From: Candidatus Zambryskibacteria bacterium RIFCSPHIGHO2_01_FULL_43_25
GTDB lineage: Bacteria > Patescibacteriota > Minisyncoccia > Phycocordibacterales > Zambryskibacteraceae
Reading direction: 5' to 3'
Assembly: GCA_001823695.1 (NCBI GenBank)
Contig: MHVD01000004.1
Location: forward strand, 1 to 41,428
DNA: 41,428 bases
The position numbers and the translations under genes were made by a program. Shown here in pieces: positions 3,798 to 40,738 of the stretch; the first letter of the stretch is position 1; each line of letters opens with the position of its first letter. Under the pieces are notes generated by a model. The model ran no database searches and had not been told where the DNA came from. It worked only from the letters and a program-made list of their open reading frames with translations.

Positions 3798-3867
3798 CCC
3801 GTTAGAGATTAATTCTAATCTAGCTAAATAATAGAAGAAAAACTTCGTTAAATCAAGAAAAGAATAG

Positions 3868-7644: not shown

Positions 7645-7723
7645 TCCCGCCGATAGTCGGACAAGATTCAGGCAGTGTCCCCATTTAGATAAAGTTTTTT
7701 GTAGAATACAAATAGTTTCATAC

Positions 7724-7756
7724 GGCCACGTAGCCAAGTAGTAAGGCAGGAGTCTG
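7724..7756 (+). repeat. partial copy (33 nt) of the tRNA-Cys 5' half, ending in the anticodon loop
   Basis: GGCCACGTAGCCAAGTAGTAAGGCAGGAGTCTG is identical to tRNA-Cys positions 1-33, then diverges. Confidence 0.7.
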
Positions 7757-8039: not shown

Positions 8040-8041
8040 CC

Positions 8042-8113
8042 GGCCACGTAGCCAAGTAGTAAGGCAGGAGTCTGCAAAACTCCTATACGCGGGTGCGATT
8101 CCCGCCGTGGCCT
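8042..8113 (+). tRNA. tRNA-Cys (anticodon GCA)
   Basis: Cloverleaf: acceptor GGCCACG/CGTGGCC, 3-bp D-stem, anticodon loop CTGCAAA, T-arm GCGGGTGCGATTCCCGC, discriminator T. CCA is not encoded. Confidence 0.85.
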
Positions 8114-8328: not shown

Positions 8329-8358
8329 CTTAGTACAAGATTATAATTTTGGTCAACC

Positions 8359-8400
8359 AATAAACATACTAACAAACTTGAGTTTGTTAGTATGTTTATT
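8359..8400 (+). promoter_or_regulatory. 42-bp perfect palindrome (20+TG+20) overlapping the promoter of the ArsR-like gene; candidate operator or terminal inverted repeat
   Basis: AATAAACATACTAACAAACT-TG-AGTTTGTTAGTATGTTTATT; the arms are exact reverse complements. It ends 5-14 nt before the gene's ATG codons. Confidence 0.7.
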
Positions 8401-8414
8401 GTAGGATGTTAAAT

Positions 8415-8699: not shown

Positions 8700-8738
8700 C
8701 AACATACTCACAAACTCAAGTTTGTTAGTGTGATGTAA
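8700..8738 (+). repeat. second, imperfect copy of the ArsR-flanking palindrome, in inverted orientation (centre CA)
   Basis: ACATACTCACAAACT-CA-AGTTTGTTAGTGTGATGT begins 1 nt after the stop codon. It approximates the reverse complement of the upstream copy with 3 mismatches. Confidence 0.65.
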
Positions 8739-14179: not shown

Positions 14180-14653
14180 TCAATTGCTACTGCCCCTGGT
14201 TGGCAAAAAAGGAAGTTGGATCGGTCCGCCGCCAATGAAGTCGGAGTAGAGGAGATTTATGATGCCCCAGATAGATACCATTATAAACAAGGCGATAATA
14301 CCCCAAAAAATCAGTCTCTTGCCGTCGGCAACTTTCTTCTCATCTCCAGCCGCGAGTATGAATTTCGACAGCCCCCAGAAAAAGACAAGCATCGTCAACG
14401 CAACCATAATTGGGAAAGCTGTATTTATGAAATTTAGAATAATGCAAATAAATTCAGAAAAGTTCTGCGGAGCTTGAGACGGGGTATTTGAACTAGGAGT
14501 CGGACAGGAAGCAGCAAAAGTTACAAGGGGAATAAAGAAAAAAGAAAAAAGAACTAGCCCGCCCGAACGACTGACATCGTTCAGTCGGGCGGAGAATAAG
14601 GAATAAAGAATAAGGAGAGCCAATAATTTATTTTTCGGGAAAAATTTAAGCAT
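14180..14653 (-). CDS. small secreted or lipoprotein-like 2-TM protein, FFWG-type paralog 1, with extended N-terminus
   Basis: 157 aa. N-terminal hydrophobic region includes LVTFAASC (lipobox-like). Core: MLVFFWGLSKFILAAGDEKKVADGKRLIFWGIIALFIMVSIWGII. Confidence 0.5.
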   Translation of the reverse strand: MLKFFPKNKLLALLILYSLFSARLNDVSRSGGLVLFSFFFIPLVTFAASCPTPSSNTPSQAPQNFSEFICIILNFINTAFPIMVALTMLVFFWGLSKFILAAGDEKKVADGKRLIFWGIIALFIMVSIWGIINLLYSDFIGGGPIQLPFLPTRGSSN

Positions 14654-15044: not shown

Positions 15045-15503
15045 TTAAGGTTGCGTATTTATAAGAATCTGGAAAAACGTTGAGCCGGGATCAAGCAACG
15101 CCTTGCCTATAGTATAAACAATGACCCAGGCCGCCAAGACAAAAATAAAACCAATCAATGTCTTCTTGAAAATTCCGTGCGCTTTTTCAATCTTGCTTTG
15201 ACTGCCCTCTGCCGTAATATATATCGCGCCCGCCCAGATAAATGACAGCGCCGCCAAAGGAATAGCTATAATAATCATAAATTTCAATATCTTTTCCGCA
15301 AGCTCAACAAGGTCGTCAAAACCGCATGGGTCTTGTATAACCCCAGTTTTCAAATCGGGTTTGTCGTCACAGACATCCATAAAAGTGCTCGTGGGATTTT
15401 GGGCATAAGCCAGATTTGGGACGTTTAGAAACACGAAAAGGACAAGCGTTAAAAGCGCAAAAATAAGACCACTTGATACACTTTTTTGCCTGAAAGTCTT
15501 CAT
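15045..15503 (-). CDS. small secreted 2-TM protein, divergent type A; VirB2/TrbC-like topology
   Basis: 152 aa with a signal peptide ending AYA, a Cys pair (CDDK...DPC) in the mature N-terminus, then IIIAIPLAALSFIWAGAIYITAEGSQSKIEKAHGIFKKTLIGFIFVLAAWVIV. The ATG overlaps the upstream gene's stop (TAATG), indicating translational coupling. Confidence 0.5.
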   Translation of the reverse strand: MKTFRQKSVSSGLIFALLTLVLFVFLNVPNLAYAQNPTSTFMDVCDDKPDLKTGVIQDPCGFDDLVELAEKILKFMIIIAIPLAALSFIWAGAIYITAEGSQSKIEKAHGIFKKTLIGFIFVLAAWVIVYTIGKALLDPGSTFFQILINTQP

Positions 15504-16792
15504 TATTTCCCCTCTAGTAAAAGATTAATGCGTCCATGCGTATCGGCTATTGCCTGCTCCTGTCTTACCCGTCCGCCGGTTATTGATTCAATCATCTCCC
15601 TAAAAAGCACTTCTGTCTCTTCCGGATCCGGATCGTGCCACCCCCTAGCCCAAAGAGCGCTTTTGTAAAAGACCGACAAAAATTGATCCGACGGCAGTTC
15701 CGCTAGAAGATCTCTTCTCGGAGGAGGAAGTTTCAGGTTTTCAACAAAGGCCGCGACACTTTCACGGGTAGTGAGAGCTCTGGCTATTTGGTAAGCTCCG
15801 GCTATATTCTTTGAATTTTTGATAATTGCTAACCCATAAAGCTGGCCAAAGGTTGTATTGCGTCCGGAATTTCTGGATTGAGGCATTATGGAAACATCAA
15901 AATTAAGATTCGGATTTTTGCGTCGTACATAATCAAGCTCCGAGGCAAAACCAAAATAGACCGCCAAATCACCGGCAACAAAAGAAGTTTGAGCATCAGG
16001 CAGGGATCTATTCCAGGAATAAAAGGCTTTAGTCGGGTTTGAAAATTCGGTGTAGAAAGTCAGGGCAGAATTGGCCGGAGAGATGGGTTCACCGCGTCTG
16101 TCGGAGAGGGTGCTTACAAATTTGTTATATTGCCATTCAACTATCGGGTTGCCCGCCTGGAAAATAAGCGTGGTAAGAATCTCCTTGGCATTTTGGATAT
16201 TGGAAAACTCGCCCATAGCCACTGTGCTCCTCTCCAGATTGAGAGCTCCGGCGCGAATGGTTAGTTTTTTGGTTAGGTCAAAAAATTCATCCCAGTACAG
16301 AGGCGGAGTTGATATGCCCGCGTTTGTAAAAATATCCCTGTTCCAGTACATAACCAGAGGGTCAATCGTCAAGGGCAGCGCCACAATCCCATCGGACATG
16401 AGAAACATCTCGGCTTCTTCTACAAAAGAGCTCTTGAAATCTCTCTCGGAAATAGTCTGGTAGGGAATGGGGAAAATTTTGTTGCGGTACTTTATGATCA
16501 AATCCTGGGAAATGACAATCAGGTCCGGACCACCGCCTGAAGCCAGAGCTTCAAGAAGATCTTCATCGAAACTCTCTGCCGGTTTTTCAACATAGCTGAC
16601 CTTGAACGTGTCATCCTTGCTTATGGGCAATTTGGAGAACGACTGCGAGAAGACACCACGAGACATTGTGCCCCAGATTACGACGTTGGAAGTCGTTTGG
16701 CCTCCGCCGCCCTTGCTTAAAGCAAAAAAAGCAACGCCTATCGCTATAAATACCCCGAACACAACCAGAAGACCGATTTGGAATTTACTCAT
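15503..16792 (-). CDS. membrane-anchored extracellular solute-binding-protein-like protein (SBP_bac_1 / sugar ABC substrate-binding fold)
   Basis: 429 aa with an N-terminal TM anchor. Periplasmic-binding-protein motifs DPLVMYWNRDIFTNAGISTPPLYWDEF and AVYFGFASE. No adjacent permease or ATPase genes. Confidence 0.6.
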   Translation of the reverse strand: MSKFQIGLLVVFGVFIAIGVAFFALSKGGGGQTTSNVVIWGTMSRGVFSQSFSKLPISKDDTFKVSYVEKPAESFDEDLLEALASGGGPDLIVISQDLIIKYRNKIFPIPYQTISERDFKSSFVEEAEMFLMSDGIVALPLTIDPLVMYWNRDIFTNAGISTPPLYWDEFFDLTKKLTIRAGALNLERSTVAMGEFSNIQNAKEILTTLIFQAGNPIVEWQYNKFVSTLSDRRGEPISPANSALTFYTEFSNPTKAFYSWNRSLPDAQTSFVAGDLAVYFGFASELDYVRRKNPNLNFDVSIMPQSRNSGRNTTFGQLYGLAIIKNSKNIAGAYQIARALTTRESVAAFVENLKLPPPRRDLLAELPSDQFLSVFYKSALWARGWHDPDPEETEVLFREMIESITGGRVRQEQAIADTHGRINLLLEGK

Positions 16793-17190
16793 CCCGTTAG
16801 AAATCAGTTAGTTGGGTTTGTAATTTGACCATAATTATTTGACTGATTTTATATTAATACACCTGTAAGTGATGTAACTACGGAAATGCCCATACTTTAA
16901 CATTTTTATCAAGCTTCCTTTTCGAACTTTTCTATTTTTCTATAAGTTAGAGCTCTAATCATACAGCATTTCCTATTTCTTACGGGACTCATCCCGTTAG
17001 AAATCACTTAGTTTGTCTTGTAATGCGACCATTATTTATTTACTATTTTGTATATTAATATACCCGCAAGAAATTCTGATTACGGAAATGCCTATATTTT
17101 TATAATCCTGTCTAGCTTCTTTTTCAATTAACTCCATAAAACTATTTTACAGTTGCTCTTTCTTCCGTAGCATTTCCTATTTCTAACGGG
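16787..17190. repeat. tandem direct repeat, two diverged ~200-bp units (16787-16986 and 16987-17190); each unit ends in a copy of the SBP start region (CGGG-ATGAGT in minus orientation)
   Basis: The units align at about 75% identity. Each begins ACTCATCCCGTTAGAAATCA and ends CATTTCCTATTTCT(T/A)ACGGG. A 12-bp inverted repeat CCCGTTAGAAAT / ATTTCTAACGGG brackets each ATGAGT. Confidence 0.75.
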
Positions 17191-17192
17191 AC

Positions 17193-17720
17193 TCATTTCT
17201 TAAGCATCATTATACCAAAGTGATGTTCGCCTGCCGATATATCCTTTTCAACCGAAAATCCCTTGTTTGAGAAAAGCGAGACTGCTGAATCTCTGGTAAA
17301 TACGGCCGACTGTTCCGGACCAAGACCTTCGAAAGAATCCGTCCAGTCAATAATCAAAGCCCGCCCGCCGGACTTGAGTATCCGCGCCGCTTCTCCAGCA
17401 CAGGCCTCTTTATTGGAAATTTGAAACAGCACATTGGACATAAAAACCCAGTCAGCGCTCGCATCCTTCAGTCTGGTGCCTCCTATTTGTTCTATATCGC
17501 CCCAGATTATCTCAACATTGGAGAGGTTGCGGCGGCGCGCCTCGTTTTTTATACGAGCCAAAAGATCCTTCTGAATGTCCACGGCATAAACTCGGCCTGA
17601 CTCGCCTACTTTAAGCGCCGCCGCCAGGGTGTAGTGGCCGGAGCCGGAGCCAAAGTCAACCACTACTTGCCCCAAAAGCAAGTTAAGCTGGTCTATATTT
17701 TTTTGAGGGTCGGAGAACAT
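17193..17720 (-). CDS. class I SAM-dependent methyltransferase
   Basis: Motif I VVDFGSGSGHYT and Rossmann-fold MTase spacing. 175 aa. Confidence 0.7.
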   Translation of the reverse strand: MFSDPQKNIDQLNLLLGQVVVDFGSGSGHYTLAAALKVGESGRVYAVDIQKDLLARIKNEARRRNLSNVEIIWGDIEQIGGTRLKDASADWVFMSNVLFQISNKEACAGEAARILKSGGRALIIDWTDSFEGLGPEQSAVFTRDSAVSLFSNKGFSVEKDISAGEHHFGIMMLKK

Positions 17721-22281: not shown

Positions 22282-22323
22282 ACCATCACATTTTTTCTGC
22301 TATAGCAGAAAAAATGTGATGGT
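22282..22323 (+). repeat. 42-bp perfect hairpin/palindrome ACCATCACATTTTTTCTGC-TATA-GCAGAAAAAATGTGATGGT (PalB family)
   Basis: 19-bp exact stem with a TATA loop. The terminal 10 nt and the GC-TATA-GC centre are identical to the element at 29834. Confidence 0.75.
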
Positions 22324-29833: not shown

Positions 29834-29875
29834 ACCATCACATAAAATCCGCTATAGCGGATTTTATGTGATGGT
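29834..29875 (+). repeat. 42-bp perfect hairpin/palindrome ACCATCACATAAAATCCGC-TATA-GCGGATTTTATGTGATGGT (PalB family copy 2)
   Basis: 19-bp exact stem. Same termini and centre as 22282, with compensatory differences inside the arms. Confidence 0.75.
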
Positions 29876-30333: not shown

Positions 30334-31254
30334 ATGTATGAATTGGCAATTTTGGGCGGTGGACCGGCAGGCGTTGCCGCCGGAGTTTATGCAGCCCGAA
30401 AAAAACTAAAAACCGTTTTGATTACGGAGAGCTTCGGCGGACAGAGCACCGAGTCTAGCGGCATACAAAACTGGATCGGCACGATTGAAATTGACGGACT
30501 TGCATTTTCAGAGATGCTCAAAGGGCATCTTTTGGCTTATTCCGACGGAATTATTGATATAAAAGAAGGAGAGAAAATTGAATCAGTCGGCAAGACCGAT
30601 GCTTCGTTTGAAATAAAAACTAATAAAAATACTCACAGAGCGAAAAATTTGCTCATAACAACCGGCAGCCACCGAAGAAAACTAGAAATCCCCGGGGCGG
30701 AGGAGTTCGAAAATCGCGGAATCACATATTGCGCCTCTTGCGACGGACCGCTGTTTTCAGGAAAAGACGTCGTGATTATCGGCGGTGGTAACGCCGGATT
30801 TGAAACAGCTCTGCAATTGCTGGCTCATGCCAAAAGTGTGACCTTGCTTCACAGAAGTGCCAATTTCAAGGCCGACCCGATAACAGTTGAGAAGGTACTG
30901 TCAGACCCCAAAATGAAAGCCCTCAAAAATGTCTTGCCTGTTGAGATAAAGGGAAACAAGTTCGTAACGGAGGTGGTTTACGAAAACAAGGATACCAAAG
31001 AGAGAACGGAAATTCCGGCAGAGGGCGTATTCATAGAGATTGGCTCGGTGCCAAACGTTGATTTTGTGAAAGACCAGCTTGAGCTCAATGAATACAATCA
31101 GATAAAAATAGACCACAGAAATCAGCGCACAAGCGCCGAGGGAATTTGGGCCGCCGGCGATTGCACGGACGCGCTTTTTCATCAAAACAATATAGCTGCC
31201 GGAGATGCTGTTCGGGCGCTTGAAGACATTTATATTCATTTACACACAAGATAA
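30334..31254 (+). CDS. trxB: thioredoxin-disulfide reductase
   Basis: FAD motif GGGPAGVAAGVYAA, redox-active CASCDG, and the NADPH-binding GGGNAG. Confidence 0.85.
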   Translation: MYELAILGGGPAGVAAGVYAARKKLKTVLITESFGGQSTESSGIQNWIGTIEIDGLAFSEMLKGHLLAYSDGIIDIKEGEKIESVGKTDASFEIKTNKNTHRAKNLLITTGSHRRKLEIPGAEEFENRGITYCASCDGPLFSGKDVVIIGGGNAGFETALQLLAHAKSVTLLHRSANFKADPITVEKVLSDPKMKALKNVLPVEIKGNKFVTEVVYENKDTKERTEIPAEGVFIEIGSVPNVDFVKDQLELNEYNQIKIDHRNQRTSAEGIWAAGDCTDALFHQNNIAAGDAVRALEDIYIHLHTR

Positions 31255-31403
31255 TCCCGTAAGAAATAGGAAGTGCTAATGAATGAAGACAAAAATGGAA
31301 AAATATCTAGAATATTACAAAAATAATCTTACGCAGGACTCGCTGACCGCGGCCTGCCAGCCCGAACGAATGAATTCTTTCATTCTGGTGGGTTTCTAAC
31401 GGG

Positions 31404-40382: not shown

Positions 40383-40420
40383 AATCTATTCTATAGTTCT
40401 CAAGAACATTAGAATAGATT
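40383..40420 (+). repeat. 38-bp near-perfect palindrome overlapping the 3' end of the second ArsR-like gene (centre CA)
   Basis: AATCTATTCTA-TAGTTCT-CA-AGAACAT-TAGAATAGATT. It encodes the C-terminal residues FLRTIE and the stop codon, and shares the core TAGTTCTYRAGAAC with the palindrome at 40693. Confidence 0.6.
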
Positions 40421-40692: not shown

Positions 40693-40738
40693 CACATCCC
40701 TATTCCATAGTTCTTGAGAACTATGGAATAGGGATGTG
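40693..40738 (+). promoter_or_regulatory. 46-bp perfect palindrome (22+TG+22) upstream of the second ArsR-like gene; candidate operator or terminal inverted repeat
   Basis: CACATCCCTATTCCATAGTTCT-TG-AGAACTATGGAATAGGGATGTG. It lies about 40 bp upstream of the start codon at 40655. Confidence 0.7.

Follow-up and report, generated by a model that had tools for sequence, protein, structure and literature searches.

The 41,428-nt stretch analysed here (positions 1 to 41,428 of contig MHVD01000004.1 from Candidatus Zambryskibacteria bacterium RIFCSPHIGHO2_01_FULL_43_25; hereafter, the window) carries, between a methyltransferase gene and the gene for an extracellular solute-binding protein (SBP), some 400 bp of repeated DNA that very probably represent two tandem copies of a non-autonomous DNA transposon resembling a miniature transposable element with inverted repeats (MITE), and not a duplicated leader. 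The two copies belong to an apparently undescribed family of mobile elements, widespread in the Patescibacteria, that usually lands exactly on start codons. MITEs are a known kind of element, but this family's use of its target, its wide distribution, and its rule of orientation are new as far as Rfam and the searched literature show, and no description of it was found in publications on the arm sequences, MITEs, leaderless genes, or the Patescibacteria. An earlier note, made from the letters of the window alone, had read the same region as a repeated local duplication of a promoter, 5' untranslated region, and start cassette. Read along the minus strand, the region consists of three ATGAGT hexamers alternating with two units, and its features are the following.

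17191–17196, minus strand: ATGAGT copy 1, at the original start-codon position; its TGA (17195–17193) is the stop codon of the methyltransferase gene.
16993–17190, minus strand: unit A, MITE-like and 198 bp long, bounded by terminal inverted repeats at 17179–17190 and 16993–17004.
17170–17177 and 17084–17091, minus strand: the two strands of the unit A hairpin, termed P2, with a loop of 78 nt.
16987–16992, minus strand: ATGAGT copy 2, the spacer common to both tandem elements, at the center of an 11/12 palindrome.
16793–16986, minus strand: unit B, 194 bp long and in one subfamily with unit A, with terminal inverted repeats at 16975–16986 (one mismatch) and 16793–16804.
16966–16973 and 16882–16889, minus strand: the two strands of the unit B hairpin P2, with a loop of 76 nt.
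16787–16792, minus strand: ATGAGT copy 3, the working start codon and second codon of the SBP gene.
15503–16792, minus strand: SBP gene, encoding a 429-aa protein with SBP_bac_1/SBP_bac_8 domains (locus tag A2653_02910).
17193–17720, minus strand: gene for a 175-aa S-adenosylmethionine-dependent methyltransferase, upstream of the SBP gene.

Units A and B lie side by side and are 73% identical overall; with the arms and the adjacent AGGAAATGCT removed, they still align at 68% identity (z = 9.0, 500 shuffles), far above the shuffled background. The earlier description of two diverged units of about 200 bp ahead of the SBP gene, with three ATGAGT copies at their boundaries and one of these overlapping the methyltransferase stop codon, was therefore accurate. 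A repeat search of the window reported the array as separate pieces (D2, D6, D12, and D17), and it was not listed by Tandem Repeats Finder, whose stated sensitivity drops below about 70% identity. Each unit starts with CCCGT(T/A)AGAAAT and ends with ATTTCTAACGGG, a 12-mer that occurs three times exactly within these 400 bp, and once more with one mismatch, where by our own arithmetic about 0.005 exact occurrences would be expected by chance in 41 kb. The unit ends are terminal inverted repeats of 12–13 nt, (T)CCCGTTAGAAAT...ATTTCTAACGGG(A), one of which is adjoined by the hairpin. The note had recognized this 12-nt inverted repeat and had placed it around the ATGAGT of every junction, yet only the middle ATGAGT has arms on both sides, complementary at 11 of 12 positions, and each outer junction has a single arm. 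The arms are hence the two ends of each unit and not a hairpin around each ATG, and the suggested presentation of an AUG in a hairpin loop could take place at the middle junction, but not at the outer ones. In a 13-nt model of the terminal repeat, the final T of ATGAGT copy 1 is the outermost base of unit A, and copy 3 resolves into the outermost A of unit B followed by the duplicated target TGAG. The hairpin end of unit A is directed away from the SBP gene (class 2 orientation). Tandem pairs with the same 6-nt shared spacer are also found in three other loci (L056, L064, and L166; L numbers designate the loci compared in this work).

The units are not restricted to this region. An exact search with the 17-mer CCCGTWAGAAATAGGAA in one genome per GTDB species returned at least 116 loci. 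By our own arithmetic, chance matches over this 596-Gb collection reach a comparable level, and the signal is hence the composition of the matches, not their number: most of the matches listed come from Patescibacteria (Paceibacterota, Nomura-, Zambryski-, and Kaiserbacteria, and "Saccharibacteria"), which by our reckoning make up a small share of the collection, and a few are listed from the Thermodesulfobacteriota, Omnitrophota, and Planctomycetota. A scan of Joint Genome Institute (JGI) metagenomes contributed 45 further loci, and the viral contigs of IMG/VR yielded zero matches. Pairing of the arms in the 17-mer and JGI loci defined 135 unique elements of about 43–310 bp in more than 100 other genomes, mostly of Patescibacteria. 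The occurrence of the same bounded units at unrelated genes in these genomes, as well as at another locus of the same genome, speaks against a local duplication of promoter, 5' untranslated region, and start cassette, since the units are members of a dispersed family bounded by inverted repeats. The suspicion of a recombination or mobility hotspot was right.

The elements share a common anatomy, in which arm 1 is followed by a variable segment, the hairpin P2, one nucleotide, and arm 2. The base of P2 is conserved as GGAA(A/G)...(T/C)TTCC and its loop spans either 3–5 nt or 57–153 nt, with units A and B belonging to the long-loop type, and its distal stem shows matched changes on both strands (GGAAATC/GATTTCC, GGAAACC/GGTTTCC, GGAAGC/GCTTCC, and GGAAATGC/GCATTTCC). 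The arms co-vary within elements at their inner three positions in several lineages (AGAGAT/ATCTCT, AGAAGT/ACTTCT, and AGAAGC/GCTTCT), and no conservation of the internal sequence was detected between subfamilies. The elements are non-coding, with no coding capacity beyond a short and variable upstream open reading frame (ORF), M-x-P-V-R-N..., that always begins in this manner because the terminal repeat encodes that start. This ORF ends at varying positions, with the UAA of the arm providing its stop codon in just 12 of 54 cases, and the length of the elements is unrestricted modulo 3; coupling through the upstream ORF was rejected on these grounds. At L118 and L120, elements of 75–76 nt that are approximately 80% identical stand at the start of the same gene (gatC, as assigned from the protein sequence only) in two species, indicating that some insertions persist through speciation. 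Copies outside the Patescibacteria (L105, L167, L075, L148, L154, and others from the Thermodesulfobacteriota and Omnitrophota) have C...G as their 13th base pair, and extra outer repeats of 8 nt, either ACGCAGAT or ATCTGCGT, bracket them. Three copies were inspected in L105; they are situated upstream of genes that have Shine-Dalgarno sequences, or at the 3' end of such genes, and none of them is at a start codon; the copy at position 2761 of this locus provides the stop codon of an ORF.

The flanks of the elements carry the evidence for a duplicated target. A large fraction of the elements (97 of 135, about 72%) abuts an ATG that opens an ORF, and the bases immediately outside the 12-nt arms are a T on one side and an A on the other in 102 of the 135, making the inverted repeat effectively 13 nt long. 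Beside these 13-nt ends, exact direct repeats reach a maximum of 4 nt in 68 of the 97 copies that abut a start, with the others showing 5 nt (5 copies), 3 nt (4), 2 nt (2), or none (18). Agreement between left and right flanks is 80–89% at positions x2–x5, 79% at x1, and 37% at x6. The duplicated tetramers are usually TGNA, with TGAA (53) ahead of TGGA (14), TGAG (13), TGTA (8), and TGCA (4). In three loci (L040, L078, and L055), the promoter-side copy reads GTG and the gene-side copy ATG, which shows that the element contributes the A of the working start codon; here a GTG start seems to have become an ATG start through the insertion. Among 74 upstream ATG copies, 36 are preceded by a TAnnnT hexamer that ends 5–9 nt upstream, with a sharp peak at 6–7 nt; this spacing is the geometry of leaderless promoters, and the loci without such a hexamer include operon-internal stop/start junctions. 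In the window itself, at least two genes show the leaderless arrangement: they lack a Shine-Dalgarno sequence, and a TATAAT box lies 8 nt ahead of their ATG. A nested insertion in L101 (approximately 2735–2962), in which one element sits within another, has perfect flanking repeats of 6 nt, and occupies an ATGAAT site away from any gene start, suggests a real preference for TGAA-like targets, and not selection alone. As a separate observation, the 3' end of a Nomurabacteria 16S rRNA gene (L013, 690–735) reads ...GGTCGTGGAATAATTC and lacks the CCTCC anti-Shine-Dalgarno, which fits start-codon selection of the non-Shine-Dalgarno kind in at least part of the host group.

Elements occur in both orientations relative to the adjacent gene (68:16), and orientation is fixed by subfamily: P2 is on the gene side in 17 of 17 elements of the 82–84-nt type, which by our reading of the flanks precedes at least ten different genes, the opposite holds for all seven of the 74–76-nt type, and the 118-nt type is consistent in four of four. 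Since the ends are symmetric and orientation is nonetheless fixed, the internal sequence may be under selection, which hints at some effect on expression.

Relatives of the host provide examples of the same junction without the array. In L123, L124, and L125, which encode SBPs with 66% (L123), 54%, and 50% identity to the window protein, the synteny of gyrA, methyltransferase, SBP, and pilin genes is kept, and the stop of the methyltransferase gene either adjoins the SBP ATG or overlaps it, without any insert; no arms were found at these junctions, and no good arm match elsewhere in the fetched loci. The L123 junction is uninterrupted (...ATGAGCAAA...) and reads ...ggcaaagcaATGAGCAAATTT... at the position of ATGAGT copy 1, so that its ...ggcaaagcaATGAGCAAATTTCAG... 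corresponds to ...cttaagaaATGAGT-unit A-ATGAGT-unit B-ATGAGTAAATTCCAA in the window. The ancestral state is hence a methyltransferase stop overlapping the SBP start, between which the insertion now puts 400 nt. In a Nomurabacteria locus (L017), the same methyltransferase–SBP junction holds another, oppositely oriented member of the family, 83 nt long, which is an independent insertion at the same start codon. The repeated ATGAGT of the array is the TGAG target-site duplication joined to the terminal T and A of the element and, together with the uninterrupted junction in relatives and the lack of any convincing promoter within units A and B, this leaves no support for a copied start cassette. 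The variation in unit copy number that the note had considered was not seen either, with six contigs from different samples being 100% identical over 430 nt at the array, invariant in copy number, and free of within-species polymorphism.

Two further traces of the family are present in the window.

31256–31403, plus strand: copy C, a degenerate third copy of 148 bp in which each arm has one mismatch.
3798–3810, minus strand: a solitary gene-proximal arm, AATCTCTAACGGG, flush with the ATG (3797) of a trypsin-like protease gene.

Copy C takes up the entire spacer from the TAA of a thioredoxin-reductase-like gene (31252–31254) to the ATG of a PurN-like gene (31404). It has lost the 3' strand of P2, contains a GC-rich terminator-like hairpin at 31356–31391, and has flanks that fit a zero-length or 2-nt duplication; in the relative closest in synteny (L176), the two genes are separated by a different spacer of 73 nt that lacks arms. 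The solitary arm is probably the remnant of an old insertion of which the gene-side arm was kept, since a gene in L053 that encodes a closely similar N-terminus has a complete 76-nt element at its start. Another copy resides in L141, a locus on a 96-kb JGI contig in which the RNase H gene bears the locus tag A2653_00590, with the same A2653_ prefix as the SBP gene of the window. This 191-nt element lies between the recJ stop and the rnhA ATG, is flanked by TGAA, and shares 71% identity with unit A and 67% with unit B. In other genomes, the copies of about 190 nt reach no more than 58% identity with A, B, or the L141 copy. Units A and B are hence not a privileged pair, since the L141 copy is about as close to A as B is. 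The genome thus holds dispersed copies (A, B, C, the arm remnant, and the L141 copy), and those at operon-internal stop/start junctions occupy methyltransferase–SBP, trxB–purN, and recJ–rnhA; in other genomes, several 8-kb loci contain two or three copies.

In the proposed insertion model, the element would enter a target of a few nucleotides, in most cases the 4-nt TGNA and occasionally one of 3 or 5 nt, which would be duplicated in the process. With the TG-N-A of a start codon as target, the original ATG would be left beside the promoter and the terminal A of the element, joined to the duplicated TG, would create a new ATG flush with its other end, so that both promoter and ORF would survive. 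In compact genomes that are rich in leaderless genes, the start codon may be one of the few harmless landing sites and, combined with a preference for TGAA-like targets, this would account for the approximately 72% of copies at start codons. Each insertion would also regenerate its target, and a second event would yield the ATGAG-T[element]A-TGAG-T[element]A-TGAGT arrangement that is observed. We infer that the operon of SBP and pilin genes must now rely on read-through and on an internal AUG without Shine-Dalgarno sequence, located directly 3' of a self-pairing element.

Members of the family show several properties of MITEs: they are small and non-coding, have terminal inverted repeats and a target duplication, and form dispersed copies that show presence/absence at orthologous sites (the junction is empty in L123–L125 and holds a different element in L017, and L176 is without copy C). 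Known bacterial MITEs include the Correia/NEMIS elements of Neisseria, the RUP elements of Streptococcus pneumoniae, and the ERIC/IRU elements of enterobacteria. Bacterial MITEs are likewise non-coding elements of less than 320 bp, with terminal inverted repeats, short direct repeats, and many dispersed copies, and they share with the present family presence/absence at orthologous sites, co-transcription with neighboring genes, and folding into long hairpins. The family nonetheless differs from Correia/NEMIS, RUP, and ERIC/IRU in having its own end sequence and a TGNA, instead of a TA, duplication, and in spanning many classes of Patescibacteria and other phyla, where those elements are not known beyond a genus. 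It also differs from them in that most copies stand exactly on a start codon that is rebuilt with the terminal A of the element, and in that no parent insertion sequence has been identified for it. Bacterial MITEs have been reviewed (PMC2229807; PMC3184786).

Several other systems present partial likenesses. The CC(C) ends and a 4–5-bp T...A duplication are reminiscent of the IS1380/piggyBac superfamily (TTAA in piggyBac), and CCCGTTAGAAAT somewhat resembles the piggyBac end CCCTAGAAAGATA, which makes the superfamily a tentative lead; the target here is TGNA and not TTAA, however, and the surroundings of the copies yielded no transposase of this kind. Rickettsia palindromic elements, like the 'byp' elements of Magnusiomyces mitochondria, are mobile hairpins that survive in contact with coding sequence because their ends and duplicated flanks preserve frame or decoding, but these lie inside ORFs and are translated or bypassed, whereas the present elements touch only the first codons and leave the ORF complete with its own ATG. 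Among the candidates that were considered and rejected, integron attC sites have the order 5'-RYYYAAC...GTTRRRY-3', which the 5'-GTTAGA...TCTAAC-3' found here reverses; moreover, single copies carry half-sites and the window has no integrase. A diversity-generating retroelement was discarded because the substitutions are symmetric, with 17 of 41 involving an A in unit A and 17 of 41 an A in unit B, indels are present, and the window encodes no reverse transcriptase. A curated structured RNA (riboswitch, leader, or small RNA) was likewise ruled out by the absence of any Rfam covariance-model match, a search of the region and eight typical loci at gathering score and at E ≤ 10 having returned nothing relevant.

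The way in which the array arose from its first element admits two possible routes, by two insertions into a self-regenerating target or by an old in-place duplication. A single insertion that was later doubled in place, with the ATGAGT repeats at its flanks as the sites of slippage or unequal exchange, is possible, though not the course of events that we would expect. The array would in that case be a local tandem duplication of an inserted element, and part of the note's idea would survive. Unequal exchange between the 6-nt repeats would give a product identical to the observed alternation of repeats and elements, and A and B share orientation and architecture and are, at 73%, each other's closest relatives. 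Yet the L141 copy, from another place in the genome, matches A (71%) as closely as B does, other genomes repeatedly show tandem pairs that share a 6-nt spacer, including a pair with different arm variants in L056, and the direct homology available for exchange amounts to just 6 nt. The middle junction, with its 12-nt arms around a 6-nt spacer, could also be taken as the 12-6-12 core of a site for site-specific recombination of the Xer/dif, attC, or loxP kind, ATTTCTAACGGG-ATGAGT-CCCGTTAGAAAT, with the units as cassettes, and the arm motifs TCTAAC and GTTAGA may resemble integron core sites. This reading is scarcely credible, given that a complete palindrome is formed only where one element adjoins another, single copies having half-sites at both ends, that the spacer varies by site, that the core order is opposite to that of attC, and that no recombinase is encoded in the window, where genes for a transposase, integrase, or reverse transcriptase are likewise absent. 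Repetitive extragenic palindromes (REP/REPIN) mobilized by an associated IS200-like Y1 transposase (RAYT) offer another parallel, since they too are short extragenic repeats that form hairpins, are present in many copies per genome, and are arranged in tandem or inverted clusters. The smallest members of the present family are plain long hairpins of 35–47 nt, a Y1_Tnp gene (Pfam PF01797, E = 1.5e-9) adjoins two 35-nt mini-copies in L103/L171, and the protein family is abundant in Patescibacteria. We nevertheless regard mobilization of this type as very improbable. Mini-copies are near only one of four Y1_Tnp loci, and at all four (L171, L173, L174, and L175) the Y1 transposase gene is bracketed by its own private GC-rich perfect palindrome and not by CCCGTTAGA arms, these loci being a separate mobile or REP-like system; the L171 protein scores 38 bits against the NCBIfam REP_Tyr_transpos model (cut-off 80); the TGNA target duplication is unexpected for Y1 transposition; and the head of the element is CCCG/TAC, with the GTAG of REP sequences absent. 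For these reasons, REP/REPIN-RAYT was set aside. IS200-like Y1 transposases are very abundant in Patescibacteria, with 7900 proteins reaching E ≤ 1e-10 among the 8000 candidates scored.

A different kind of alternative holds that the elements are functional 5'-leader modules whose paired ends and P2 act in the mRNA and whose position flush with the start codon has been selected. The constant contact with the AUG, the retention of P2 pairing through many matched changes on both strands, the concerted changes of the arms, and the fixed orientation of the three subfamilies (17/17, 7/7, and 4/4) are all in line with this idea, as are the gatC-start elements retained in L118 and L120, the location of one element inside the infA-rpmJ ribosomal operon, and the presence of a -10-like hexamer 6 nt before P2 in 17 of 64 copies. 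The pairing data are informative in this regard. A stem maintained at the RNA level should tolerate G·U but not A·C mismatches. The arms pair at 1278 of 1320 positions (110 elements), and their mismatches in the mRNA sense are 13 G·U, 14 A·C, and 15 of other kinds; in P2, 302 Watson-Crick pairs are accompanied by 5 G·U and 8 A·C. The symmetry of these counts, in which G·U mismatches of the sense strand do not outnumber A·C mismatches, favors a palindrome kept at the DNA level, be it as transposon ends or through hairpin-templated correction. RNAalifold recovered the arm stem and P2 and nothing else, and folding of the 422-nt region gave similar values for both strands (z = -3.7 and -3.9). Searches for an internal promoter common to the family were negative, the -10-like hexamer peak being present in one subfamily only, and the arm had no pairing match in the 3' half of a Nomurabacteria 16S gene. 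The leader interpretation must further contend with the occurrence of the family in either orientation, the lack of conserved internal sequence between subfamilies, the absence of an Rfam match and of any common promoter or upstream-ORF-stop geometry (the arm UAA being used in 12/54), and the finding of the inspected non-Patescibacteria copies away from start codons. A selected leader function is therefore rather doubtful, and the same doubt extends to the roles that could be envisaged for it, such as insulation of the start codon, trimming of the leader to the AUG by an RNase III-type enzyme, attenuation, or carriage of an outward promoter. It is less likely still that a mobile 5'-leader module has been adopted by many Patescibacteria genes, spreading a new form of translation-start control by transposition. 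Under such a scheme, a leaderless gene would gain a leader, with the true AUG directly at the base of a 14-bp stem, the opposite strand of which begins 6 nt from the 5'-terminal AUG, and 5'-loaded ribosomes or a double-strand-specific RNase could use this geometry to reach or re-expose the true start. It is the fixed orientation of subfamilies and the matched changes of the arms that keep this possibility alive.

Those same two observations count against the interpretation of the array as MITE-like insertions, which is the one preferred here: co-variation of the arms is not predicted by the simple decay of transposase binding sites, nor is a fixed subfamily orientation predicted by random insertion without selection. 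Other points weigh on the same side. No autonomous element or transposase with these ends was found in the window, in approximately 1.1 Mb of fetched loci, or in IMG/VR, and arm pairs lying 0.5–4.5 kb apart do not enclose a transposase gene, nor does one lie beside solitary arms. In view of this lack of a cognate transposase, mobility is deduced only from distribution, empty sites, and flanking repeats. The length of the duplication is not uniform, a minority of copies departing from 4 nt within a range of 0–5 nt, and a zero-length duplication fits copy C and the L017 element. The invariance of six contigs gives no sign of recent activity at the array. Lastly, translation from the gene-side AUG, which has no Shine-Dalgarno sequence and lies directly 3' of a stable stem, is left unexplained by an insertion model.

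The array is embedded in the order gyrA, methyltransferase gene, SBP gene, and a run of type IV secretion system (T4SS)-pilin-like genes. Elsewhere in the window, an exact 34-nt repeat links 7723–7756 with 8041–8074; the second copy is the 5' part of a tRNA gene (8042–8113), and the first, which received no tRNA call, may be a tRNA fragment. The window also contains families of intergenic perfect or near-perfect palindromes with the appearance of terminators, at 22282–22323 and 29834–29875, 8358–8401 and 8701–8732, 40386–40417 and 40693–40738, and 14557–14592 and 31356–31391; among them, the CTATTCTATAGTTCT... palindrome is found as well in the trxB–purN spacer of L176.

The Patescibacteria (candidate phyla radiation, CPR) have tiny, gene-dense genomes that are usually thought to be poor in repetitive DNA. 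The present findings point to a mobile-element family that is conserved across the phylum and has found a safe harbor exactly at start codons, where it rewrites the 5' ends of many genes, including genes of ribosomal operons, gatC, and transporter genes. In doing so, the element breaks translational coupling within operons, sometimes turns a GTG start into an ATG start, and leaves behind a decoy 5'-terminal ATG that encodes M-x-P-V-R-N. The practical consequences include misled gene callers and start-codon predictions, split assemblies, and regions that look like "duplicated leaders." Should the rule of orientation reflect a function, the family would furthermore constitute a natural experiment on how ribosomes locate start codons in organisms dependent on leaderless mRNAs.

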